Below, one piece after another: positions 9,163-28,074 of a stretch of DNA of 34,247 nt; position 1 is the stretch's first letter; each line of letters begins with the position of its first letter. Source of the stretch: Saprospiraceae bacterium (GTDB taxonomy: Bacteria; Bacteroidota; Bacteroidia; Chitinophagales; Saprospiraceae); contig JADZFP010000296.1 of the NCBI GenBank assembly GCA_020849825.1, positions 1-34,247 on the forward strand, written 5' to 3'. The notes under the pieces are model-generated. The model made no database searches and was not told the origin of the DNA. It worked only from the letters and a program-made list of their open reading frames with translations. Both the position numbers and the translations under genes were made by a program.

Positions 9163-9429
9163 ATGCCGCGTTCGCTCAAAAAAGGCCCTTACGTACACCA
9201 CGCACTGACGGAAAAAGTCGCTAAGGCCAAACAAAGCAACAGAAAACAGGTGATCAAAACCTGGAGCCGCGCCTCCATGATCATCCCGGATATGGTCGGC
9301 GAAACCATCGCTGTCCACAACGGCAAAACATTCATCCCGGTGTTCGTCACCGAAAATATGGTTGGCCACAAACTCGGCGAGTTCGCGCCCACGCGCAACT
9401 TCCGCGGCCACGCCGGTAACAGAAAATAA
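9163..9429 (+). CDS. rpsS: 30S ribosomal protein S19
   Basis: 88 aa with [10 protein letters not shown]...[16 protein letters not shown]. Confidence 0.97.
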
Positions 9430-9573
9430 TGTGCTAATGTGCTAATGTGATAATGTGCTAACGTGGATAATGTGAAAATTTTTCACATCCTGCACTTGAG
9501 CAAATCATCAGCATATTACCTAATTGGCACATCAGCACACTCCTAATTAGCACATTAGCACATTAGCACATTT
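9427..9573. repeat. Octamer-repeat palindromic element #1 (TAATGTGC arms / GCACATTA arms), rpsS-rplV spacer
   Basis: The left arm has 3 GTGCTAA copies and the right arm has 3 TTAGCAC copies. The arms are reverse complements. Internal mini-hairpin GTGAAAATTTTTCAC at 9472-9486. Confidence 0.9.
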
Positions 9574-9581
9574 TTAATAAA

Positions 9582-9944
9582 ATGGAAGCCGTAGCAAAAT
9601 TGCGCAACTGCCCGATGTCGCCCCGCAAAATGCGACTGGTAGTAGATAATATCCGCGGTAAAAACGTGGTGGATGCCCTTAGCATTCTCAAATATACCAA
9701 CAAGGAAGCTGCCATGTGGCTGGAGAAGCTCGTGCTGTCGGCTGTCAACAACTGGGAACAGAAATCTGACCAGGTTGGCGCAGCAGACGACTACGAACTC
9801 TACATCAAAACCGCCCACGTGGATCCGGGTGGCATTATCTACCGCTTCCTGCCCGCTCCTCAAGGCCGCGCCTATCGCGTCCGCAAGCGCCGCAATCACG
9901 TGACGCTCGTGGTCGAAAACAAAGTTCGCCTCGACGGAGAATAA
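9582..9944 (+). CDS. rplV: 50S ribosomal protein L22
   Basis: 120 aa with [26 protein letters not shown]. Correct position. Confidence 0.96.
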
Positions 9945-9994: not shown

Positions 9995-10897
9995 ATGGGT
10001 CAAAAAGCAAATCCGATTGGTAACCGCCTGGGCATTATCCGCGGTTGGGATTCTAACTGGTACGCCGACAAAGACTACGGTCTGAAAGTAGTAGAGGACG
10101 AAAAAATCCGCACCTACCTCCGCGCCCGTCGCCCGAAAACGGCCACCGCCGATCCCCGCGAACGCAACAAACCGATGCAAAACGGTATCAGCCGCATCGT
10201 GATCGAGCGTACCCTCAAACGCGTTACCGTCACCATCCATACCAGCCGCCCCGGTATTATCATCGGTAAAGGCGGTAAGGAGGTTGACCTTATCAAGGAA
10301 GAGCTCAAAGTGCTCACCGGCAAGGATGTCCAAATCAACATCTTTGAAATCCGCAAGCCCGAACTCGACGCCAACATCGTAGGCGAACAAATCGCCAAAC
10401 AAATCGAAGCCCGTATCAACTTCCGTCGCGCCATCAAAGGCGCCATCCAGGGCTCGATGCGCGCCGGCGCCGAAGGTATCAAGATCCGCGTAAGCGGTCG
10501 TCTCGGCGGCGCTGAAATGAGCCGTGTTGAAGAACACAAGGAAGGCCGTACGCCGCTCCATACGTTCCGTGCCGACATTGATTATGCACTTGCCGAAGCA
10601 CAAACGGTGTATGGCAAAATCGGTATCAAAGTTTGGCTCTTCAAAGGCGAAGTGCTCCAAAAACGCGAACTCACTCCTTTCGCAGCAGCCGAAGGCACCG
10701 ATCGTGGTGACCGCGGTGGCGATCGCGGCGGAGATCGTCGCGGCGGCGGTGAACGCCGTGGCGGTGGCGAACGCGGAGATCGTGGCGAACGCGGTGAACG
10801 CGGAGATCGTCGCGGTGGCGGCGGTGGTGATCGTCGCGGTGGCGGCGGCGGTGGAGATCGCCGCGGCGGCGGTGGCGGTGGCAATCGCCGGCGCTAA
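9995..10897 (+). CDS. rpsC: 30S ribosomal protein S3 with a roughly 70-aa C-terminal RGG/GDR repeat tail
   Basis: 300 aa. [16 protein letters not shown]-like [18 protein letters not shown] and RADIDYA motifs. Tail is [63 protein letters not shown]. Confidence 0.96.
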
Positions 10898-10930
10898 ACC
10901 GTGAACCTAGGATAATACCATATCTTGTTG

Positions 10931-12793: not shown

Positions 12794-13341
12794 TGAAATA
12801 CGTAGCGCGTCTTAAAAAGAAATACAACGAGGATGTTGTGCCTGCACTGATGCAGCAATTCAACTACTCCTCCGTCATGCAGGTACCCCGTTTGCAGAAA
12901 ATCTGCATCAATCAGGGTATCGGCGATGCCACGGGCGATAAAAAACTCGTCGACCTGGCTGCCGCCGAACTCAGCACGATCGCCGGCCAAAAAGCCGTCG
13001 CCACCAAGGCCAAGCGTTCGGTCTCGAACTTTAAACTTCGCGAAGGCATGCCCATCGGCGTACGCGTAACGTTGCGCGGCGAACGTATGTACGAATTCCT
13101 CGATCGTCTTATCCAGATCGCTCTCCCCCGTGTGCGCGACTTCCGCGGTATCAACGACAAAGCTTTCGACGGCCGCGGCAACTTTACCATGGGCATCACG
13201 GAGCAAATCATCTTTCCGGAGATTGATATCGACAAGGTCAACAAAATCATGGGTATGGATATCACCTTCGTGACCAGCGCCCAGACCGATGCCGAGGCTT
13301 TTGCCCTGCTCAAAGAACTGGGCGTGCCCTTCAAAAAATAA
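12793..13341 (+). CDS. rplE: 50S ribosomal protein L5
   Basis: [20 protein letters not shown]... I prefer ATG 12793 over the track's GTG 12790. It overlaps the rplX stop as TGATG, a translational-coupling layout. Confidence 0.95.
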
Positions 13342-13373: not shown

Positions 13374-13643
13374 ATGGCAAAGAAATCCATTATCGCCCGC
13401 GAACACAAGCGCCAACGTCTGGTCGCCAAGTATGCTGATTTGCGCAAAAAGCTCAAAGAAGCCGGCGAATACGATGCTTTGGACAAACTTCCGCGCAACG
13501 CCAACCCGATCCGCCTGCACAATCGGTGCCTGCTCACCGGCCGCCCGAAAGGGTATATGCGCAAATTCGGGATCTGCCGCGTCAAGTTCCGCCAAATGGC
13601 GCTCGACGGCAAAATTCCGGGTGTAACCAAAGCCTCCTGGTAA
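13374..13643 (+). CDS. rpsN: 30S ribosomal protein S14 (long form lacking the CxxC pairs)
   Basis: 89 aa, [14 protein letters not shown]...GVTKASW. Only two Cys residues, so it is not the short zinc-ribbon form. Confidence 0.95.
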
Positions 13644-13716
13644 GTTTTTCACGGTCAGCAGGGTCATTTCGACCAACCTGGGCCAATTCTTCATTCGACT
13701 TTATTTTCCAAAACAT

Positions 13717-14124
13717 ATGCAAGTCACCGATCCGATAGCAGATTATCTGACCCGCATCCGCAATGCTCAAATGGCGGGCCATCGTATCGTCGAGATTCCG
13801 GCTTCTAAAATCAAGAAGCGCATGACCGAAATCCTGTACGACCAGGGCTATATCCTCAAGTACACCTTCGACGCTGAAGGCGCTCACAAGCAAGGACTCA
13901 TCAAGATCGCTTTGAAGTACGATCCGGTGACCAAACAACCGGTCATCCGCGAGCTCGTGCGCGTCAGCCGTCCCGGCTTGCGCAAGTTCTCCGGCGCTAC
14001 CGATATTCCGCGCATTATCAATGGCCTGGGTATCATGATCGTCTCCACCTCCAAAGGTGTGATGACCGACAAACAGGCTCGCGAACACAACGTCGGCGGA
14101 GAATTGCTCTGCTATGTGTATTAA
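13717..14124 (+). CDS. rpsH: 30S ribosomal protein S8
   Basis: 135 aa with TDPIADYLTRIRNA. Confidence 0.96.
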   Translation: MQVTDPIADYLTRIRNAQMAGHRIVEIPASKIKKRMTEILYDQGYILKYTFDAEGAHKQGLIKIALKYDPVTKQPVIRELVRVSRPGLRKFSGATDIPRIINGLGIMIVSTSKGVMTDKQAREHNVGGELLCYVY

Positions 14125-14163
14125 TGCTCACAACCTTAACTGATCACGTAAATCATCATAGAA

Positions 14164-14724
14164 ATGTCCCGGATAGGTAAAATGCCGATCGCAGTTCCTG
14201 CCAAAGTGGAAATCTCCGTCGCTTCCGATAACACGGTTACGGTGAAAGGCCCGAAAGGAACCCTGTCGCAAAAAGTTGACCCGGATATCAAAGTGTCGCT
14301 GGAAGAAGGCAATGTCGTTGTCGAACGCCCAACCGACCAGAAACGCCACCGCGCCCTGCATGGTCTGTACCGTGCCTTGCTCAACAACATGGTCACCGGC
14401 GTCAGCCAGGGCTTTGTAAAAGAAATGGAGATCGTGGGCGTCGGTTATCGTGTGGAGAACCAGGGTAACCTCGTTACCTTCATGCTCGGCTATTCTCACC
14501 CGGTCATCTTTGCCGTTCCGCAGGAAGTCAAAGTGACGACCGGCATGGAAAAAGGCCAACCGCCTTTTATCAAGCTGGAATGCCACGATAAAGAACTGCT
14601 TGGCCAGGTTTGTGCCAAGATCCGCAGCTTCCGCAAACCGGAACCGTACAAAGGCAAGGGTATCATGTTCAAAGGCGAAATCATTCGTCGTAAAGCGGGT
14701 AAAACTGCCGGCGGTAAGAAATAA
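14164..14724 (+). CDS. rplF: 50S ribosomal protein L6
   Basis: 186 aa with MSRIGKMPIAVPAKVEI. Confidence 0.96.
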   Translation: MSRIGKMPIAVPAKVEISVASDNTVTVKGPKGTLSQKVDPDIKVSLEEGNVVVERPTDQKRHRALHGLYRALLNNMVTGVSQGFVKEMEIVGVGYRVENQGNLVTFMLGYSHPVIFAVPQEVKVTTGMEKGQPPFIKLECHDKELLGQVCAKIRSFRKPEPYKGKGIMFKGEIIRRKAGKTAGGKK

Positions 14725-19645: not shown

Positions 19646-19649
19646 TAAT

Positions 19650-19800
19650 TAATGTGCTAATGTGCTAATGAGATAATGTGCCAATTAAGAGAGCACTTAT
19701 CTGGTTGGTATTCTTAGCCGGTTCAAATAGCCATTAGCACATTAACTAATTAGCATATTATCTAATTAGCACATTGTCAAATTAGCACATTAGCACATTA
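19650..19800. repeat. Octamer-repeat palindromic element #2, rpsM-rpsK spacer
   Basis: 2 GTGCTAA copies on the left and 4 TTAGCAC copies on the right. The central core at 19691-19723 is shared with element #3. Confidence 0.9.
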
Positions 19801-19805
19801 ACAAT

Positions 19806-20198
19806 ATGGCCAAGGGAGCTAGCAAAAAAGTTGTCAAGCGCAAGGTTAAAGTGACGCCGGAAGGCCTCGTCTATATCCACGCCAGCTTCAACAACATCAT
19901 TATCTCGATCACCAACAAGCAAGGCGAAGTGGTATCCTGGGCATCGGCCGGCAAAGCCGGATTCCGCGGCTCGAAGAAAAATACCCCTTACGCTGCACAA
20001 ATCGCTGCCAACGACGCCGCAAAGACGGCTTTCGAGGCAGGCATTCGCGCCGCCGAGGTGTTCGTTAAAGGACCGGGTTCGGGTCGCGAGGCTGCTATTC
20101 GCGCCATCGACCAGTCGGGTATCAAAGTCATGATCATCAACGACGTGACCCCCATGCCCCACAACGGTTGCCGTCCGCCCAAACGCCGCCGCGTTTAA
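19806..20198 (+). CDS. rpsK: 30S ribosomal protein S11
   Basis: 130 aa with [19 protein letters not shown]...[14 protein letters not shown]...[13 protein letters not shown]. Confidence 0.97.
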
Positions 20199-20200
20199 GG

Positions 20201-20390
20201 AATGCGCTAATTAGTTAATGTGCTAATGTGCTAATTAGATAATGTGCTAATTATGAGCGCTTATCAGGTTGGTATTCTTAGCCGGTTTAACTAATCTATT
20301 AGCACATCAATACATTAGCACATTGACTAATTAGCACATTAGCCCCATTACCGAATTAGCACATTAGCACATTATCAAATCAGCACATTA
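20201..20390. repeat. Octamer-repeat palindromic element #3, rpsK-rpsD spacer
   Basis: 3 GTGCTAA copies on the left and 5 TTAGCAC copies on the right. The core at 20255-20287 matches element #2 at 30 of 33 positions. Confidence 0.9.
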
Positions 20391-20396
20391 TCAATA

Positions 20397-21011
20397 ATGG
20401 CTCGTTATACTGGACCAACGACAAAAAAAGCCCGCACGTTCGGCGATTCAATCTACGGCTACGACAAATATTTCGAACGTCGTAAGTATCCGCCCGGACA
20501 GCATGGCCAGGCCCGCAAGAAAAAAGCGGCCTCCAACTATGCTGTGCAGCTGTCTGAAAAACAAAAAGCCAAGTACACCTACGGTGTGCTCGAGCGTCAG
20601 TTCCGCAAGACCTTTCACGACGCCACGCGCCGCCACGGCGTTACCGGCGAAGTGTTGCTCCAACTGCTGGAAGCACGCCTCGACAACACGGTGTACCGCC
20701 TCGGCATCTCCCCGACCCGGCGCGGCGCCCGTCAGTTGGTTGGCCACCGCCACGTGACCGTCAACGGTAAAGTGGTCAATATCCCGTCCTATTCGCTGAA
20801 GCCCGGCGATGTGGTGGCCGTTCGCGGTCGCTCCAAGGGTCTGGAAGTTGTCACTACCCACGTGGGCGCCAAAACCAGCGATGTGCGCAAATTCGGCTGG
20901 CTGGAATGGAACCCCGATAAAATGTCTGGTATCTTCCTGGCCTACCCGCAACGGGATCAGATTCCGGAGAAAATCAACGAACAGCTGATCGTCGAGTTGT
21001 ACTCGAAATAA
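20397..21011 (+). CDS. rpsD: 30S ribosomal protein S4
   Basis: 204 aa with [13 protein letters not shown] and an S4 RNA-binding domain ([13 protein letters not shown]...[14 protein letters not shown]). Confidence 0.97.
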
Positions 21012-21164: not shown

Positions 21165-22163
21165 ATGAGTATTCTCAATTTCCAAAAGCCCGACAAAATC
21201 CTGCTCCAAAAAGCAACGGACTTTGAAGGCACTTTTGAATTCAAACCCCTCGAACCGGGCTTCGGCCAAACGGTTGGCAACTCTCTCCGTCGCGTACTCC
21301 TTTCCTCGCTTGAAGGCTTCGCCATCAGCGCTGTACGCATCGGCGGTGTCGACCACGAGTTCGCTACGATGCGTGGCGTCGTGGAAGACGTGGTAGACAT
21401 CGTGCTCAACCTCAAACAGGTTCGAATCAAACAACTTATCCAGGACGAAAAACTCCAGCAGGAGAAAATCTACCTGACCATCAGCGGTCGGGAAGAATTC
21501 CGTGCCGGAGATATCGAAGAATTCACCAACGTGTTCAAGGTGATGAACCCGGAACTCCTGCTTTGCCGCATGGAACCCTCCGTCAACCTCGAACTGGAAC
21601 TCACCATCACCAACGGCCGCGGCTACCAGCCCGCCGATGATATGGTGCCGAAAGACGCCGCTATCGGCGTTATCCCGATCGACGCGATCTACACGCCCAT
21701 CAAAAACGTGGCGTACAAAGTGGAAAATACTCGTGTCGGCCAGCGCACCGACTACGAAAAACTCACCATCGATGTGAAAACCGACGGCACCATCCACCCG
21801 GAAGATGCCATCCGCGAAGCAAGCCGTATCCTGATCCAGCACCTTATGCTGATCACCGACGACAACATCACTTTCGATACGCCGCAAAGCCGCGAGGAAA
21901 ATGTAGTGGACGAGCACATCCTCCACATGCGCAAACTGCTCAAAACCTCGCTCGAAGATCTGGACCTCAGCGTACGCGCCTACAACTGCCTCAAGGCAGC
22001 CAAAATCAATACGCTGGCCGAACTGGTCAAATACGACACCCACGAACTGCTCAAATTCCGCAACTTCGGCAAAAAGTCGCTCGTGGAAATCGAAGAACTC
22101 CTCCAGGAAAAAGGCCTCACTTTCGGCATGGACCTGGCGAAATACAAACTGGACGAAGAGTAA
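21165..22163 (+). CDS. rpoA: DNA-directed RNA polymerase subunit alpha
   Basis: 332 aa with PLEPGFGQTVGNSLRRVLLSSLEG. C-terminal domain has LDLSVRAYNCLKAAKINTLAELV. Confidence 0.97.
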   Translation: MSILNFQKPDKILLQKATDFEGTFEFKPLEPGFGQTVGNSLRRVLLSSLEGFAISAVRIGGVDHEFATMRGVVEDVVDIVLNLKQVRIKQLIQDEKLQQEKIYLTISGREEFRAGDIEEFTNVFKVMNPELLLCRMEPSVNLELELTITNGRGYQPADDMVPKDAAIGVIPIDAIYTPIKNVAYKVENTRVGQRTDYEKLTIDVKTDGTIHPEDAIREASRILIQHLMLITDDNITFDTPQSREENVVDEHILHMRKLLKTSLEDLDLSVRAYNCLKAAKINTLAELVKYDTHELLKFRNFGKKSLVEIEELLQEKGLTFGMDLAKYKLDEE

Positions 22164-22164
22164 G

Positions 22165-22316
22165 TTAATGTGCTAATTAGTTAATGTGCTAATGTGCTAA
22201 TGACAAGGTTGTGTGCTATTTTTTCGAAACATGAGAAAAGCACTCAGCGCCCCGGAAAAGTCCACATCCGCCCATTAGCACATTGGCATATTAACCAATT
22301 AGCACATTAACACACA
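22165..22316. repeat. Octamer-repeat palindromic element #4, rpoA-rplQ spacer
   Basis: 3 GTGCTAA copies on the left and 2 TTAGCAC copies on the right. It has its own core, including the hairpin GTGCTATTTTTTC...GAGAAAAGCAC. Confidence 0.85.
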
Positions 22317-22394
22317 TTTTTTAACAAGTGCAGTAACCGTCGAGCGTCTTCAAGGGCTTGCCCCGGTGCTGCCACCTAAACTTAGGTACATCTC

Positions 22395-23114: not shown

Positions 23115-23148
23115 TTTCCCGGGTCAATCGATTTCAAGATACCATGCG

Positions 23149-23187
23149 AGAGCCGCTCCGAGTGTTCGGGGCGGCTCTTGTTGTTTG
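23149..23187 (+). terminator. Rho-independent terminator closing the ribosomal-protein cluster
   Basis: Stem AGAGCCGCTCCG / CGGGGCGGCTCT (13 bp including one G-U pair) with a 6-nt loop, then TTGTTGTTT. Confidence 0.75.
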
Positions 23188-23204
23188 GTGGACTGGAAAG
23201 GAGC

Positions 23205-23728
23205 GGGATGGGAACGCGGATGACGCGGATTTGGGCGGATGGACACGGATTTTTTACCCGCGCAGCGGTGGTGTTTTTGGACAGGATGAACAAGATTTAC
23301 AGGATCGGACAGGATTTTTTTAGGGAAAGAAGCAACACCCACCATGCCGGCGCAGCCGGCATTTATCCTGTTAATCTTGTTGATCCTGTCTAAAAAAACA
23401 GTTTGGGGTTGGACAGGATGAACAAGATTTACAGGATCTGACAGGATTTTTTTAGGAAAGAAGCAGCACCCGCCATGCCGGCGCAGCCGGCATTTATCCT
23501 GTTAATCTTGTTGATCCTGTCTAAAAAAACAGTTTGGGGTTGGACAGGATGAACAAGATTTACAGGATTGGACAGGATTTTTTTAGGAAAGAAGCAACAC
23601 CCGCCATGCCGGCGCAGCCGGCATCTATCCTGTTTATCGTGTTTATCCTGTCAAAAAAGCACCCGCGCAGCGGGTAAAAAAAATCCGTGTCCATCCGCCC
23701 CAATCCGCGTCATCCGCGTTCCCATCCC
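23205..23728. repeat. Outer inverted repeat (arms 23205-23261 and 23670-23728) enclosing a tandem hairpin array
   Basis: The reverse complement of the left arm equals the right arm except for one substitution and an A-run of 6 versus 8. A 13-nt direct repeat ACCCGCGCAGCGG lies at 23256-23268 and 23661-23673. Confidence 0.9.
23279..23652. repeat. Three tandem units of about 131 nt (starts 23279, 23411, 23542), each an internal hairpin with a GCCGGCGCAGCCGGC apex
   Basis: Units are near-identical on direct reading. The unit arms GGACAGGATGAACAAGATTTACAGGAT and ATCCTGTTAATCTTGTTGATCCTGTC are reverse complements with 2 mismatches. Confidence 0.9.
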
Positions 23729-24045: not shown

Positions 24046-24366
24046 ATGATAAACCGCATACAAACAGCCGTTTTATTCTATCTGTTAATCAGTTGGTTGC
24101 TCAGTGCAGCTTGTGGCAGAGACACGGATAAGCTGGTGCAAGCCAAGGTGGCCGAACGCGTCAATGAATACAGTGCCAAACGCATCGCCGAATGTGAGCG
24201 GAATTTATTGGCCCGTGCCGAAAAAATCGCGGATTCGCTGCTGATCCAGGAAGCCATCGACGACCTCAACGACTCCCTGGCCCGCAGCCGCCCTGGCCGC
24301 CCCGATCGCCCTGCACCCATACCGCCGATCGATTCTACGCCGGTAAAGCCGATATTTGAACGATAG
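24046..24366 (+). CDS. Small lipoprotein (helical region plus Pro-rich tail), function unknown
   Basis: The internal ATG 24046 gives MINRIQTAVLFYLLISWLLSAAC with a lipobox-like LSAAC (106 aa). The track start at 23974 adds an implausible N-terminus. Confidence 0.6.
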   Translation: MINRIQTAVLFYLLISWLLSAACGRDTDKLVQAKVAERVNEYSAKRIAECERNLLARAEKIADSLLIQEAIDDLNDSLARSRPGRPDRPAPIPPIDSTPVKPIFER

Positions 24367-24447
24367 TGCCGCGTACATCGATACAAGGCAACGCAAACCG
24401 CTCCCCGGGCGCCATGTGTTGACCCCTGCTGCCTGTCGACACCTTCC

Positions 24448-27400
24448 ATGTTGAGCCACCCAAACCTTACGCCGGCCCGCCGCCGGGTTTCGCTGTTGCC
24501 CAAACGGGCGCAGCGGATGCTGTGCGGCCTGTTATTGTGCTTATTTGGCGCTGCTGACCTGTCTGCGCAATGGACCAACTGGCGTACCCAAACTGTCGAC
24601 GCTTCCCTGCCCGAACAGGTTCTGGATACCCTGAGCCTGCTGCCACCCCTGCTCGGCGCCCAGGATTCCGTCAGTGGCCAGTCGCTGGATGCGCGCTTTT
24701 TTACCCTGCAAAATAACCGCCTGCTGATCGACACGGCCGCTTTGCAAGCCGCTCACCCGGGCTGCTCCCGCCTCACGCTGAGCTACCGCGTTTTGCCCTA
24801 CAACCTGGCCGCTCCTTTCCGCCGCCTCGATACGCTGGCCATTCGACGCCCCGGCGCGCCCGAAGACGATATCCGGTACGATTATTCGCCCTATACGCCT
24901 TCCAAAAACATCTGGGAAACCAACAGCCTGCGCTCCAACGGCGCCTATGTGCGCGGTCTCTCCTTCGGCAACAACCAGAACCTGGTATTCAACTCCAACC
25001 TCACCCTGCAACTCGATGGGCGCCTGGGCAACGATCTCGAACTGAGCGCTGCCCTCTCCGACAATTCCATTCCACTGCAACCCGACGGCACCACCCGCCA
25101 GTTGCAGGAGTTCGACCGGATTTATATCCAGTTGCGCCGCAAAAACACGGCGCTTACCGCCGGCGACTACGACCTGACCCGGCCCCAGGGCTATTTTTCC
25201 AATTATTTCAAACGCCTGCAAGGGGGTATGATCAATGGCTTGGAGCGCTTGCCGGGCCGCGATACCCTGACTTACCGCGCCGCAGCAGCCGTGTCGAGGG
25301 GCAAATTTGCCCGGCAAATCATCCAGGGACAAGAAGGTAATCAGGGCCCCTATCGCCTGCAAGGGGCGGAAGGCGAGCGGTTTATCATTGTGCTGGCTGG
25401 CACGGAGAAAGTGTATATCGACGGTCAGCTGCTGCGCCGGGGGCTCGACGACGACTACATTATCGACTACAATCTGGGAGAAGTGAGTTTCACCCCGCGC
25501 CGCCTGATTACCAAAGACAGCCGCATTATTGTCGAGTTTGAATACGCCGTGCAGGCCTACCTGCGCGCCACCATGGCCGGCAACGTAGAGTGGCGGCAAG
25601 CCCGCGGACGTACTTACCTGAATGTTTACTCCGAACAGGACAGCCGCAACAGCGGTGGCGCGCAGGACCTTTCGCCGGAAGAGCGCAGCCGGCTGGCCCA
25701 GGTGGGCGACGATTTGTCGGAAGCGTTTGCATCCGGTGTGGATACGCTGAGCGACTACGACCCCGCCCGCGTGCAATACAAAGCCCTGGATACCCTGATC
25801 TGCGGTGTTCTGCAAACCATTTTAGTGTATTCGGTGAATGCCGACAGCGCGCGATACGCGGCGCGATTTACCGAGGTGCCGCAGGGGCAGGGGCGCTATG
25901 TACAGGCTTTTACCGCCGCTAACGGGCGGGTTTTTCGCTGGGCGGGTTTTGACCCGAATACCTGCCAGCCATTGGGCAATTTTGAGCCGGTGGTGAAACT
26001 GATCGCGCCCGAGGGGCGGCAATTGTTTGCCCTGGGCTCGGAATACCGGCTCGGCGCCCGCACCCAGTTGAGCGCTGAAACTGCTCTAAGCCGCCTGGAT
26101 CTCAACCGTTTTTCGCCACTCGACAGCCGCGACGACGCCGACGTGGCCGTTTTTGCCGGTATTCGCCATGTGCTGGTGCCGGACAAAAAAGGCTGGCAGA
26201 TGCAGCTGCGCGGCAATTACGAACGCACTGGTACATATTTTACGCCGTTAAATCCCTACCGCCCCGCCGAATTTATCCGCGACTGGAACCTCGGCGCCAA
26301 TGAAACCAAAACAGCGGAACAACTGGCAAGAGCGGAATTATTGACCCAAAAAAAGGGATGGGGGAGTGCCCGCTACGAATTCGGGTCGTTTACAAGAAGA
26401 GGGTTGTACGACGGGCAAAGGCATTTTGCCCAGACCCGGCTAAGCCGCGGCGGCTTTGAATTTTTCGGAGAAATAAATGCCCTGCACACCGCTTCGTCGC
26501 TGGATGATACTCGGTTTTCGCGACCCAAATTTGATTTTTCCAAAACCCTTTTTACCCGAAAAGACAGTCTCAGCCGCGTACCGTTCATCAAAATAGGGGT
26601 GTACGGCGAGCGCGAAAAAAACGAACGCCGCTCAACGGGCAACGATACGCTGACCCAGGCCAGTTTCTGGTACGATCTCGGCCGTTTGTACATTCAAATG
26701 CCCGAAGGCAGCGGCCCCTTGCAACTCGGCGCCAGCCTGACCCACCGCTCCGATTTTGCCCCGATGGGCGCGCTTTTTCGCCAAAATACCGCCGCCGACG
26801 AAATCAACTTCAACGGTCGCTGGCAACCCGCCGGCGCCTTGCCGGTTCGCAGCATAAGCCAGTCGGTATCGTGGAACCTGAGCTGGCGCCAGTTGCGCAT
26901 CATCGAGCCCGAACTGACCAACCAGGAAGCGCAAAACACGTACCTCGGGCGGGTCGATTACACCCTGAGCGCCTGGAAAAATGCCCTCAACCTGACGACC
27001 GGTTATGAGATCAGTTCGGGGCAAAGTCCACGCCTGGAGTTCAGTTACGTCAAGGTCAATCCCGGCGAAGGGCAATACACCTGGGTTGATCGTAACCGCG
27101 ACAGCATTTTGCAGGTAGACGAGATGGAAATTGCCGTGTTTCAGGATCAGGCAACTTACGTACGGGTGGCGGTGAGCACGACCGATTACATCCGGACCGA
27201 CAACGTCGTGTTTAACCAAAACCTGCGTTTCGAACCCCGCGTGTTGTGGGCCGGCGCCAAACGCGGCTGGCGGCGTGTGGGCCGGCGCTTGTCGACCCAA
27301 AGCACCCTGCAGATCAACCGCCGGGTTTATTCCGGCATAGAAGGCATATCGCCCTGGAATCCGTTCGACTTGTCTATCGCCGATACGGCCCTGGTGACGG

Positions 27401-28074
27401 TCTCTTCCACCGTGCGCAACGTGTTGTTTTTCAATCGGGCCGACCCTGCCTGGGATGCTTCGCTGGCCCAGGGCGACAGCCGGAGCCGTGTGGCGCTGAC
27501 CACCGGATTTGAAAGCCGCCGTGTGGCCGACTGGACCTTGCACGGTCGGCTCAATCTGGGTCGTCGGTGGAGTGTGGAGGCAGACGTGGCATTGAATCAA
27601 AAGGCTTCGGACAACGAAGTGTTTGCCAGCCGCGACTACCGCGTGTCGGGCTGGCAGGCGGGTCCCAAAGTGAACTGGCTTCCCCAGCGCAGTTTGCGAC
27701 TTTCCCTCGTGTTTTCGGGGCAAAATCTGGCCAACAGCCTGCCTTCGGGCGAAAATGCCACGCAGACCGACTGGAACCTCGAACTTACCTGGAACCCGGC
27801 CGGACAACCCAATGCTGCCGGTTTTCGGCCTGCCACCTCGCTGCGCGCCCGCGCGACCTACGCCGACGTGCGTTATACCGGCCAGCCCAATACGCCCGTT
27901 GCCTATGCCATGCTGGAAGGGCTGCAAAACGGCCGCAATTATTTGTGGGGCCTGACCCTCGACCGCCAGTTGTCGAAATCCCTGCAACTCAACCTGAGTT
28001 ACGAAGGGCGGAAGACCGGCGAGTTCGGCCGTTTGGTACACGTGGGGCGGGCGCAGGTGCGGGCGGTGTTCTGA
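24448..28074 (+). CDS. Large predicted outer-membrane beta-barrel protein, function unknown
   Basis: 1208 aa. Signal-like LCGLLLCLFGAADLSAQ. Long run of alternating-pattern strands. C-terminus ...GRAQVRAVF ends in an aromatic residue, typical of OMPs. The start is ambiguous (ATG 24448 or ATG 24517). Confidence 0.6.
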   Translation: MLSHPNLTPARRRVSLLPKRAQRMLCGLLLCLFGAADLSAQWTNWRTQTVDASLPEQVLDTLSLLPPLLGAQDSVSGQSLDARFFTLQNNRLLIDTAALQAAHPGCSRLTLSYRVLPYNLAAPFRRLDTLAIRRPGAPEDDIRYDYSPYTPSKNIWETNSLRSNGAYVRGLSFGNNQNLVFNSNLTLQLDGRLGNDLELSAALSDNSIPLQPDGTTRQLQEFDRIYIQLRRKNTALTAGDYDLTRPQGYFSNYFKRLQGGMINGLERLPGRDTLTYRAAAAVSRGKFARQIIQGQEGNQGPYRLQGAEGERFIIVLAGTEKVYIDGQLLRRGLDDDYIIDYNLGEVSFTPRRLITKDSRIIVEFEYAVQAYLRATMAGNVEWRQARGRTYLNVYSEQDSRNSGGAQDLSPEERSRLAQVGDDLSEAFASGVDTLSDYDPARVQYKALDTLICGVLQTILVYSVNADSARYAARFTEVPQGQGRYVQAFTAANGRVFRWAGFDPNTCQPLGNFEPVVKLIAPEGRQLFALGSEYRLGARTQLSAETALSRLDLNRFSPLDSRDDADVAVFAGIRHVLVPDKKGWQMQLRGNYERTGTYFTPLNPYRPAEFIRDWNLGANETKTAEQLARAELLTQKKGWGSARYEFGSFTRRGLYDGQRHFAQTRLSRGGFEFFGEINALHTASSLDDTRFSRPKFDFSKTLFTRKDSLSRVPFIKIGVYGEREKNERRSTGNDTLTQASFWYDLGRLYIQMPEGSGPLQLGASLTHRSDFAPMGALFRQNTAADEINFNGRWQPAGALPVRSISQSVSWNLSWRQLRIIEPELTNQEAQNTYLGRVDYTLSAWKNALNLTTGYEISSGQSPRLEFSYVKVNPGEGQYTWVDRNRDSILQVDEMEIAVFQDQATYVRVAVSTTDYIRTDNVVFNQNLRFEPRVLWAGAKRGWRRVGRRLSTQSTLQINRRVYSGIEGISPWNPFDLSIADTALVTVSSTVRNVLFFNRADPAWDASLAQGDSRSRVALTTGFESRRVADWTLHGRLNLGRRWSVEADVALNQKASDNEVFASRDYRVSGWQAGPKVNWLPQRSLRLSLVFSGQNLANSLPSGENATQTDWNLELTWNPAGQPNAAGFRPATSLRARATYADVRYTGQPNTPVAYAMLEGLQNGRNYLWGLTLDRQLSKSLQLNLSYEGRKTGEFGRLVHVGRAQVRAVF

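Follow-up and report, generated by a model that had tools for sequence, protein, structure and literature searches.

The window analysed here is a stretch of 34,247 nt from a Saprospiraceae bacterium (contig JADZFP010000296.1). It contains a cluster of ribosomal-protein genes with rpoA, the final gene of which is rplQ, assigned to L17 by Pfam. The intrinsic terminator of rplQ is followed by a composite of 524 nt (23205-23728), which begins downstream of the terminator and does not include it. Genes downstream of the composite occupy positions 24046-28074. The terminator and the parts of the composite are as follows.

23146-23191, plus strand: intrinsic terminator of rplQ (L17), detected by the terminator scan as a 16-bp stem followed by a T-rich tail
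23205-23255, no strand: outer left arm GGGATGGGAACGCGGATGACGCGGATTTGGGCGGATGGACACGGATTTTTT, CGGAT-type, with five GGAT-ending repeats at a spacing of about 9-12 nt, then a T-run
23256-23268, no strand: left GC mini-hairpin ACCCGC-GCA-GCGG
23269-23278: linker TGGTG and T5 after the left mini-hairpin
23279-23410, no strand: inner unit 1, an ACAGGAT-type hairpin whose arms align with solo ACAGGAT arms and with ACAGGAT arms that bracket GxxExxY genes
23279-23322: left arm and T-run of inner unit 1, followed by a spacer (23323-23343)
23344-23362: GC mini-hairpin ATGCCGGC-GCA-GCCGGCAT of inner unit 1
23363-23399: right arm and A-run of inner unit 1, followed by a linker up to 23410
23411-23541, no strand: inner unit 2, with the layout of unit 1; missing from MAG contig L001
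23542-23660, no strand: inner unit 3, with the layout of unit 1 and a more diverged right arm (ATCCTGTTTATCGTGTTTATCCTGTC), then A6 and GC
23661-23675, no strand: right GC mini-hairpin ACCCGC-GCA-GCGGGT
23676-23728, no strand: A-run and outer right arm, CGGAT-type, the mirror of 23205-23255

A repeat search of the window returned the outer arms (23205-23255 and 23676-23728) as an inverted pair, and the outer inverted repeat could be extended to 74 nt at 88% (23205-23278 and 23655-23728). An earlier reading made from the sequence only had described these arms as reverse complements differing by one substitution and by the length of the T/A-run; this was confirmed, as were all of its statements about the sequence itself, and the inverted ends that it had ascribed to the insert were recovered in the repeat analysis. 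The interior of the composite consists of three tandem units of about 131 nt, each of which is a hairpin by itself. Their starts are spaced by 132 and 131 nt, and the 51-nt left arm is 95-96% identical between the copies. The folding energy of a 546-nt stretch was -308.7 kcal/mol versus -166 +/- 6 for shuffled sequences (z = -24); the whole region folds as a single palindrome, far beyond chance.

At gathering thresholds, Rfam 15 gave no match for the composite, and at an E-value threshold it returned generic miRNA-precursor hairpins alone, far under their gathering scores. An 80-aa open frame across the composite was used as a search query and yielded no candidates. Readings of the repeat motifs as DnaA-box, IHF or parS-like sites were dropped because of their poor fit to the motifs, and also because the architecture recurs with many unrelated motif families.

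Outer arms (CGGAT-type) and inner arms (ACAGGAT-type) form two distinct families with a common arm layout. Their modularity is real, as both occur solo, empty or nested. The outer left arm fits its family pattern and was aligned in register with arms from Bacteroidota, Chloroflexota and Methylobacter. The outer pattern was found in at least 120 genome stretches, the carriers among the matches listed being Saprospiraceae, Chitinophagales, Flavobacterium, Caldilineaceae, Ardenticatenaceae, Methylobacter, KSB1 and others. The inner pattern was found in at least 120 metagenome stretches, mostly as the solo hairpins that the sequence-only reading had proposed to look for and that proved abundant in metagenomes. 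Among 59 paired elements, apex length was continuous from 10 nt to the 432 nt of the window. The two arms of one element match at 87.4% versus 76.3% against other copies, a difference reached in 0 of 2000 permutations. The ratio of G.U to A.C mismatches in the arms, compared as a distinction between RNA and DNA hairpins, was 12 to 7 (p = 0.36).

Mobile-element genes were sought in and around these repeats. A phage origin was rejected, as the outer pattern was present in 1 of 2.9 million viral contigs. For an enriched transposase, all ORFs of at least 150 aa from about 240 loci (1.5 Mb) were clustered all-versus-all, and only large housekeeping families were obtained; the GxxExxY genes described below encode 125 aa and are absent from this clustering because of the size cut-off. 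No Y1 (RAYT) gene was found in the window by Pfam and no such family was enriched among the ORFs of at least 150 aa, the profiles used being the general Pfam ones. The sequence-only reading had suggested an encoded enzyme of the Y1 or RAYT kind; a nuclease candidate was indeed obtained, of the PD-(D/E)XK type instead, in the GxxExxY family.

GxxExxY genes were bracketed by periodic-arm inverted repeats in 20 of the 22 loci sampled. The assignment of the cargo proteins is firm (E = 1e-37 to 1e-40), with scores of 127-137 bits where the cut-offs of TIGR04256 and PF13366 are 35 and 22. A family arm was located within 200 nt of 7 of 10 GxxExxY genes versus 8.6% of 3603 other ORFs (Fisher p = 3.5e-6), and the three genes far from the arm by which their locus had been selected were each bracketed by periodic inverted repeats of their own. 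Most loci in this association were chosen for containing an arm, the samples were small, and the controls consisted of the own-repeat check, an unselected plasmid sample and four new loci. In the plasmid sample, six of eight GxxExxY genes were bracketed and two had no clear bracketing repeat. For proteins of the clade of locus L116, arms of CGGAT or CTGAT type were predicted, and this held in all four new loci. The identity of the GxxExxY protein tracks the arm family and not the phylum.

In the cassettes, only a few nucleotides separate the first arm from the ATG, the gene encodes about 125 aa, and the mirror arm lies over the stop codon or behind it. The cassettes lie co-directionally inside operons, for example between nuoF and nuoG or between fabD and fabG; at the latter position, a pair of filled and empty sites was available, and the insertion was clean and discrete, with no duplication. 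The outer arms of the window align in register with the arms of L079 and L116, and the inner arms with those of L176, L164 and L168, all of which bracket GxxExxY genes. Judged by this homology to gene-bracketing arms, the arms of the window qualify as members of a proposed class of GxxExxY-associated periodic-arm hairpins. An HMM search detected no GxxExxY gene in the 34-kb window itself, and a scan for other small ORFs bracketed by inverted repeats gave no second recurrent cargo family. The proteins P0097 and P0059, each found in identical form on many contigs, were considered as proof of multiple contexts and rejected: all copies come from one locus of one abundant species, so that they do not constitute direct evidence of recent transposition. 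GxxExxY had no PHROG match, and for a link to defence systems there were only marginal, partial PADLOC matches. No description of the association between arm and gene emerged from literature searches that covered the sequences of the arms, the names GxxExxY and PDDEXK_3, and bacterial repeats of the foldback type.

GxxExxY is a named NCBIfam/Pfam family (TIGR04256 / PF13366, PDDEXK_3) with a minimal PD-(D/E)XK nuclease fold, and comprises 13,276 clusters at 50% identity. The AF2 model of the protein reached a pLDDT of 93.9, its Foldseek neighbours were Cas4, lambda exonuclease, MGME1 and Hjc, and the D..ExK triad (D66, E76, K78) was invariant. GxxExxY is taken here as a predicted PD-(D/E)XK nuclease. 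Sequence searches returned no solved structure, and the literature searched contained essentially nothing on the family.

The arms of both families tightly bracket a GxxExxY gene elsewhere, and therefore the families are read as foldback-type cassettes. On this basis, the 524-nt feature is probably built of gene-less hairpin modules that belong to two periodic-arm families, derive from GxxExxY cassettes and are stacked in mirror-symmetric layers. The layers are the outer CGGAT-type arms, a GC mini-hairpin on each side in the middle, and three tandem ACAGGAT-type hairpins inside. In the gene-bearing form, the apex of the hairpin would house the nuclease gene; empty hairpins, which are far more numerous and include those of the window, would be non-autonomous derivatives analogous to MITEs or REPINs. 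As a putative mechanism of mobility, the GxxExxY nuclease may recognise its cognate arms by their short repeats or by the structure that they extrude, and may promote their spread by break-and-repair or by excision and insertion without target duplication. Additional modules would accumulate at the apex because only there can DNA be added without destroying arm pairing. Composites, once formed, may propagate as units, and a locus may later change by unit slippage or unequal exchange, the loops of the mini-hairpins by small inversion or short-patch conversion. Close assemblies do differ in unit number and loop orientation, and the P0097 locus has two or three right arms, each state being present in several independent assemblies. 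In the window, this last stage would have happened to leave the mini-hairpins direct instead of mirrored.

A broader proposal is put forward more tentatively. Periodic-arm hairpins and GxxExxY genes may together form previously undescribed, cross-phylum selfish elements of the foldback type, in which the PD-(D/E)XK nuclease recognises its own arms, as short repeats or as an extruded cruciform or hairpin, and drives copy-out/copy-in without target duplication. Insertion would be preferentially into the apices of other hairpins and, within operons, into short spacers between genes. Empty hairpins and spurious ORFs of the 'IRVIRVP' type in Bacteroidota, Chloroflexota and other phyla would be non-autonomous progeny, and the window would hold a fossil stack of two families.

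Among the alternatives, selection by the host is the least improbable, but it is considered unlikely. At the 3' end of the highly expressed ribosomal operon, the giant palindrome would then insulate or terminate transcription in both directions, or would serve as an element of mRNA stability or for RNase III, and its repeats would be kept by selection and not by selfish spread. The composite does lie directly downstream of the rplQ terminator, and the terminator scan scored the right mini-hairpin, read on the minus strand with T6 after the stem, as an inward-facing intrinsic terminator. Arm complementarity is maintained, and hairpins of the second family fill spacers between ribosomal-protein genes of the same cluster, and are therefore tolerated in highly expressed transcription units. 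However, a canonical terminator is already present upstream of the composite, and the left mini-hairpin fell below the criteria of the terminator scan. The number of units and the orientation of the loops vary between near-identical assemblies, which argues against tight constraint. In contig L009, whose L17 protein is the same, the sequence departs from that of the window right behind the terminator, and an outer arm is missing there. The repeat families also occur at unrelated loci, adjoining gene starts and gene ends alike. The divergent tail of L009 was also considered as an empty site; this was rejected, as the window does not contain the tail sequence and so short a contig does not allow interpretation.

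The sequence-only reading itself had proposed an outer hairpin of about 120 nt with a single ACCCGCGCAGCGGGT apex, which was hit by a transposable inner element so that a 13-nt stagger duplicated ACCCGCGCAGCGG. The direct repeat behind this proposal is real: ACCCGCGCAGCGG occurs exactly twice in the same orientation, at 23256-23268 in the left and at 23661-23673 in the right mini-hairpin, and thus at both junctions of an insert with inverted ends. Uninterrupted outer-type hairpins exist elsewhere, and the 5' A and the GCA loop common to both copies are not predicted by a simple inverted repeat. ACCCGCGCAGCGG on its own forms a palindromic mini-hairpin with CCGC/GCGG as stem and GCA as loop, and therefore any inverted repeat that holds it gives a direct repeat of the stem; specifically direct are the orientation of the 3-nt loop and one or two flanking bases, nothing more.

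Several observations made a target-site duplication very improbable. Two contigs, L004 and L007, encode an L17 protein identical to that of the window and carry the left mini-hairpin in flipped form (CCCGC-TGC-GCGGG), so that the direct repeat is not constant among carriers. At the right junction of this allele, the contigs with the downstream 106-aa ORF end about 70 nt short of the element. In six comparable composites of other genomes (L023, L034, L046, L062, L097 and L133), the loops of the mini-hairpins are mirror images (TGC/GCA, TGCC/GGCA, TGAC/GTCA, TTGC/GCAA), and therefore the mini-hairpins belong to the long inverted repeat. The intact outer copies called for by the insertion model were common in other genomes as uninterrupted hairpins with other short apices, but an apex with one mini-hairpin only, as predicted for the ancestor, occurred in 0 of 59 paired outer-type elements, a sample from genomes other than the source. 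Duplications were also expected to flank other copies; the modal flanking direct repeat was 0 nt in 35 outer-type and 32 inner-type elements, equal to the shifted-flank control, and these 67 solo elements had no flanking target-site duplications. No transposase was found in the window by Pfam, and none was enriched among the ORFs of at least 150 aa near the elements. Finally, L034, from another Saprospiraceae MAG, carries the homologous succession of arm, mini-hairpin and inner hairpin at a non-orthologous locus with a purC-like neighbour, which goes part of the way towards the arrangement being a standard form, the outcome that the sequence-only reading had itself named as contrary to its model. 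Of the nesting of element into element, there remain two independent families that are also found nested, but not the 13-nt scar.

A purely local origin by slippage and fold-back (template-switch) replication, with neither mobility nor a trans-acting enzyme, is just as improbable. Processes of this kind are suggested by whole-unit indels between close assemblies. MAG contig L001 has two inner units versus three in the window, with a clean difference of 131 nt at 23342-23472, and an 8-nt unit indel separates close assemblies in the second hairpin family. In addition, the arms are arrays of short direct repeats, the boundaries of the inverted repeats vary among copies, which have ragged ends, and target-site duplications are absent. 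Against this origin, arms with an identity of about 80-90% along some 45 nt are shared by different phyla and by hundreds of loci unrelated to each other, and therefore independent local slippage cannot be their source; the filled and empty sites likewise differ by a discrete insertion. Slippage was retained only as a secondary process after arrival.

An assembly or chimera artefact at the repeat is extremely improbable: short-read contigs do break inside the inner units, and collapse of a tandem repeat in assembly could explain the two units of L001, but the left junction of outer arm and inner unit recurs beyond the window in one independent MAG contig and, across different samples, in seven further independent short-read contigs, five of the seven being identical to the window at this junction and two having the mini-hairpin flipped.

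By itself, the composite is a mosaic of palindromic repeats, elaborate but of an ordinary kind, and it lacks the insertion scar that had been hoped for. The follow-up of the composite provides a testable handle on the function of the GxxExxY protein, and on the origin of the abundant tandem-arm hairpin repeats of Bacteroidota, Chloroflexota and others that yield spurious ORFs. Should the nuclease turn out to mobilise the arms around its gene, prokaryotic DNA would have a new way of moving, with a compact pair of protein and recognised DNA motif that exists in many specificities; should it not, the tight packaging of gene and hairpin inside operons still needs an explanation. In practice, the hairpin elements break short-read assemblies, and masking them is advisable in gene calling.

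The elements were compared with known repeat systems. REP, REPIN and BIME sequences of proteobacteria, associated with RAYT transposases, are high-copy extragenic palindromes in which empty hairpins far outnumber the coding partner and which make no target-site duplication. In BIMEs, units of opposite orientation are joined by conserved linkers into mosaics, and the number of units varies between strains. The elements described here likewise are palindromic high-copy repeats, mostly empty, with no target-site duplication and with a variable number of units. A REP unit is an imperfect palindrome of 20-40 nt with a GTAG or CGTC head (PMC3733652). In contrast, the present arms are non-palindromic arrays of three to five short direct repeats, GGAT-ending 9-12-mers in the outer and ACAGGAT 9-mers in the inner family, and lack such a head. 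The associated gene is GxxExxY inside the hairpin and not a Y1 RAYT gene flanked by REPs, and the families cross phyla whereas REPs are lineage-restricted.

Bacterial MITEs (Correia, RUP, Nezha) are small non-coding elements with terminal inverted repeats that form hairpins between genes and are sometimes nested. Hairpin-folding inverted repeats dispersed between genes are found here as well. MITEs, however, are derivatives of DDE insertion sequences with fixed ends and target-site duplications, whereas the present inverted repeats have ragged, variable ends, no associated DDE transposase and no target-site duplication, including at the filled and empty pair.

Eukaryotic Foldback (FB) elements have long arms of short tandem subrepeats and variable length; most are gene-less, and a minority carry central coding DNA. 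They are the best architectural analogy, by analogy only and with no evolutionary relationship, as FB elements are eukaryotic, of kilobase scale and moved by an unrelated transposase. The intervening sequences of 23S rRNA (Leptospira S23p-type) form a long hairpin with a small apex ORF, co-directional in an essential transcription unit, and GxxExxY cassettes are likewise wedged co-directionally inside operons. The protein family and the target are different, and excision by RNase III is demonstrated for the intervening sequences.

IS1397 and ISKpn1 insert into REP loops and are a precedent for palindrome apices as insertion sites. IS1397, a complete element of the IS3 family, duplicates its target, unlike anything involved here. 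'Flip-flop' inversions of the loops of small hairpins are frequent, and by this precedent the GCA/TGC polymorphism of the mini-hairpin loops may be due to such an inversion.

The composite hairpin at 23205-23728 lies in a ~930-nt spacer 3' of rplQ (L17), with which the ribosomal-protein/rpoA cluster ends, and is preceded by the terminator of rplQ itself. T9SS and SprB proteins are also encoded in the window; together with the nearest repeats among the matches listed, they indicate Bacteroidota, probably Saprospiraceae. The inverted arms and the twofold presence of ACCCGCGCAGCGG, as described in the sequence-only reading, were verified in all their sequence statements.

Parts of the composite hairpin
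23205-23255, outer left arm, reverse complement of the right arm except for one substitution and the length of the T/A run
23256-23268, 13-mer ACCCGCGCAGCGG, first copy
23661-23673, 13-mer, second copy
23676-23728, outer right arm, mirror of 23205-23255
Inner unit, in order: left arm of ACAGGAT/ACAAGAT 9-mers, T-run, 21-nt spacer, mini-hairpin ATGCCGGC-GCA-GCCGGCAT, right arm, A-run

The outer inverted repeat of the window reaches 74 nt at 88% complementarity. The interior consists of three tandem units of ~131 nt with start-to-start spacings of 132 and 131 nt, and every unit is a hairpin in its own right. Folding of the full 546 nt resulted in a single nested palindrome of -308.7 kcal/mol, compared to -166 +/- 6 for shuffled sequences (z = -24). 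The right mini-hairpin was scored as a terminator facing inward, and the structure may serve the host secondarily as an insulator or terminator. Three observations speak against such a role as the main explanation: the polymorphism of the structure, the canonical terminator that rplQ already has upstream, and the varied loci occupied by these families.

The two 13-mers had been interpreted as a possible target-site duplication, formed on insertion of the inner element into the outer-hairpin loop. This model is disfavoured by five lines of evidence. The 13-mer itself forms a palindromic mini-hairpin (CCGC-GCA-GCGG), and a direct repeat of its stem arises automatically because the inverted repeat contains a palindrome; what is specifically direct is confined to the orientation of the loop and one or two flanking bases. 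First, the left copy reads CCCGC-TGC-GCGGG in two contigs (L004, L007) with an L17 protein identical to that of the window. Second, the mini-hairpins are mirror images in six comparable composites of other genomes, with loops TGC/GCA (L034 and L133), TGCC/GGCA (L046), TGAC/GTCA (L023 and L062), and TTGC/GCAA (L097). Third, the predicted ancestor, an apex with a single mini-hairpin, was found in 0 of 59 non-redundant paired outer-type elements. Fourth, direct repeats flanking other copies (35 outer-type, 32 inner-type) were not above a shifted-flank control. Fifth, a homologous composite in another Saprospiraceae MAG (L034) is non-orthologous in position, with a purC-like gene on one side and an unrelated gene on the other; it has the same outer arms and CCCGC mini-hairpin as the window, and its ACAGGAT hairpin has the asymmetric loop segment TTAGGGAAAG in common with the window's. 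We infer that the direct orientation in the window most likely stems from a small inversion of the loop, or else from short-patch conversion of one mini-hairpin by the other.

Outer and inner arms have a common layout (GGATGA-N4-GATT-N4-5-GGAT-N6-GGAT-T-run) and are two separate families, each also occurring without the other, as the sequence-only reading had proposed for its two parts. The outer CGGAT-type pattern matched at least 120 stretches in a species-representative genome collection, the matches listed being from Saprospiraceae, Chitinophagales, Flavobacterium, Bacteroidales, Caldilineaceae, Ardenticatenaceae, Methylobacter, KSB1, Calditrichia, and a few archaeal MAGs. Across phyla, the arms were ~80-90% identical, which purely local slippage cannot explain. 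Apex length was continuous from 10 nt to 432 nt, the longest being that of the composite in the window. Both forms sought as a check on nesting were recovered: uninterrupted, cargo-free outer hairpins are common in other genomes, and solo hairpins form the majority of the inner-type matches listed (at least 120 metagenome stretches matched). The latter frequently adjoin gene starts or ends and are occasionally nested within other periodic-arm families. Apices take up further DNA, including other hairpins, and a further inverted-repeat layer surrounded 7 of 29 outer-type hairpins vs 0 of 29 in the control. Arms matched each other better within an element (87.4%) than they matched arms of other copies (76.3%; 0 of 2000 permutations as high). 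At ~985-1330 of L034, a third palindromic layer of CGATTGG type (CGATTGGGGCGATTGGCGA ... TCGCCAATCGCCCCAATCG) encloses the composite, with four nested layers overall. No recognisable partner was present for 57 of 132 arm matches (~40%), and in five loci (L056, L105, L121, L132, L054) the CGGAT-type arm forms a direct tandem array with ~60-200-nt spacers and without an inverted partner.

A nuclease or transposase had been suggested as a lead. Pfam searches recovered no transposase in the window, and none was enriched near elements among ORFs of 150 aa or more in the sampled loci; a small nuclease-fold gene was found in apices elsewhere. On inspection, long apices proved to contain a small ORF that is their exact cargo. 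At the Chloroflexota locus L079, 12 nt separate the left CGGAT arm from the ATG, the right arm overlaps the stop codon, and the cassette is squeezed between genes resembling those for 4-hydroxyphenylpyruvate dioxygenase and homogentisate dioxygenase. The apex ORFs encode GxxExxY proteins (TIGR04256 / PF13366, E = 1e-37 to 1e-40). The hairpin families are units of which a minority of copies carry this gene in the apex; gene-bearing hairpins are far fewer than empty ones. In 1.56 Mb of retrieved loci, a family arm was located within 200 nt of 7 of 10 GxxExxY genes, compared to 8.6% of 3603 other ORFs in the same size range (Fisher p = 3.5e-6). The remaining three genes, far from the locus-selecting arm, each lay between periodic inverted repeats that belong to other sequence families (31 nt at 87%, 33 nt at 88%, 28 nt at 93%). 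In an independent sample of annotated plasmids and chromids, picked by protein similarity alone, 6 of 8 genes were bracketed (Bacteroides, Gemmatirosa, Sphingomonas, Bernardetia, Treponema, Prevotella). The association rests on tens of loci, not thousands; no description of it was found in the searchable literature, the coverage of which was incomplete, and an earlier description is possible.

Gene and arms are co-inherited across phyla, and protein identity tracks arm family rather than host phylum. Identity within families was 59% for a CGGAT pair (Chloroflexota vs Bacteroidota), 56% for a CACAGAG pair, 57% for a CACGAA pair, and 47-65% among five ACAGGAT-armed proteins; between families it was mostly ~30-45%, with a few values at 50-59%. 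CGGAT/CTGAT-type arms were therefore predicted for proteins of the L116 clade and were found at 4 of 4 new loci, including nuoF-X-nuoG and DUF4350-X-moxR. Cassettes are inserted as discrete pieces and leave no target duplication, as seen in one filled/empty pair: a ~437-nt cassette (TTCACGCGAAGG...CCTTCGCGTGAA) occupies the 32-nt fabD-fabG spacer of one Sphingomonas species and is absent from another, and comparison of the two showed no duplication. The cassette gene was co-directional with the flanking genes shown at every locus with annotated or called neighbours. Co-directional cassettes in conserved operons or between housekeeping genes occur at L289 (nuoF-X-nuoG), L264 (fabD-X-fabG), the locus of protein P0047 (leuS-X-serS), and L079, and the spacers on either side range from only a few nucleotides to a few tens. 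Some GxxExxY genes are surrounded by stacked arms (L187, ~13600-14576; L289, 364-500; L269-L288, 1888-2050), several left arms preceding the gene and as many as six or more tandem right arms following it; the right-arm number varies among strains of one species (2 vs 3).

The GxxExxY family comprises 13,276 clusters at 50% identity (E <= 0.001) and more than 8000 matches at E <= 1e-10 in the 90% identity set. Sequence searches yielded no solved structure and no PHROG match, and PADLOC gave marginal matches only. According to the AF2 model (pLDDT 93.9), the protein is a minimal PD-(D/E)XK core. The folds nearest to it are those of Cas4, lambda exonuclease, MGME1, and Hjc-type resolvases, the resemblance being confined to the fold level (TM ~0.45-0.55). 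D66, E76, and K78 are invariant, together with the G..E..Y motif. On function, a single published remark was found: 'unknown; multiple transfers, mixed clades' (PMC3424549). Members of ~260 aa with two tandem domains (P0121-P0125, P0138, and others) are possibly fused neighbouring cassettes.

The putative nuclease would work on its cognate arms, by recognition of repeat motifs or extruded structure, and may promote spread by break-and-repair or excision-insertion. The hairpin may matter as DNA or as RNA; a G.U bias, which would point to an RNA-level hairpin, was not significant in the mismatch counts (12 vs 7, p = 0.36). Apices would be favoured for added DNA because only there does addition leave arm pairing intact, and a composite, once assembled, would propagate as a unit. 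The feature of the window is itself an ordinary repeat mosaic, most likely a gene-less stack of two families with later growth by tandem duplication of the inner unit. In this it would resemble populations of REP/REPIN/BIME elements or MITEs, whose empty palindromes derive from an element linked to a protein. The defining features of those families were not found: a GTAG/CGTC-headed palindromic unit and a RAYT for REP, a target-site duplication and a DDE partner for MITEs. Closest in architecture are eukaryotic Foldback elements, the arms of which likewise consist of tandem subrepeats; ORF-bearing 23S rRNA intervening sequences are also similar.

Close assemblies vary in unit number and loop orientation. 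The MAG contig L001 is ~99.8% identical to the window across 12.8 kb and differs by exactly one 131-nt inner unit, which could result from assembly collapse; at another locus, an analogous difference of 2 vs 3 arms was present with each state in several independent assemblies. An assembly artefact as the origin of the composite is excluded, as the left junction recurs in one MAG contig and in seven contigs assembled from short reads of different samples. In the short-read contig L009 (SRR32193929), which encodes the identical L17 protein, the sequence departs directly after GTTGTTTG (rplQ terminator) and continues with CGAGGATGCTGGGTTATCTCGTCAACGCT, for which the window has no counterpart; this short contig may represent a strain with another downstream neighbourhood or an allele without the composite.

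A second hairpin family with 8-nt tandem units (AATGTGCT / ATTAGCAC) occupies ribosomal-protein spacers at 9423-9587 (before rpsS), 19646-19806 (rpsM-rpsK), 20196-20400 (rpsK-rpsD), and 22154-22323 (rpoA-rplQ). These hairpins span from the stop codon to a few nt short of the next ATG, and two copies have a conserved 39-nt non-palindromic apex (GAGCACTTATCTGGTTGGTATTCTTAGCCGGTT...) in common. Compared to L001, one 8-nt unit was gained or lost at 20330. A 1-nt indel at 13257, near the 3' end of rplE (L5), gives an ORF of 183 aa in the window and 159 aa in L001, and is probably an error in one of the two assemblies. L17 (22890-23081) has a long acidic C-terminal extension from 21-nt coding repeats (VEETVAA...), and S3 (rpsC, 10694-10901) a Gly/Arg/Asp-rich C-terminal extension from coding tandem repeats (GGDRGG-like).
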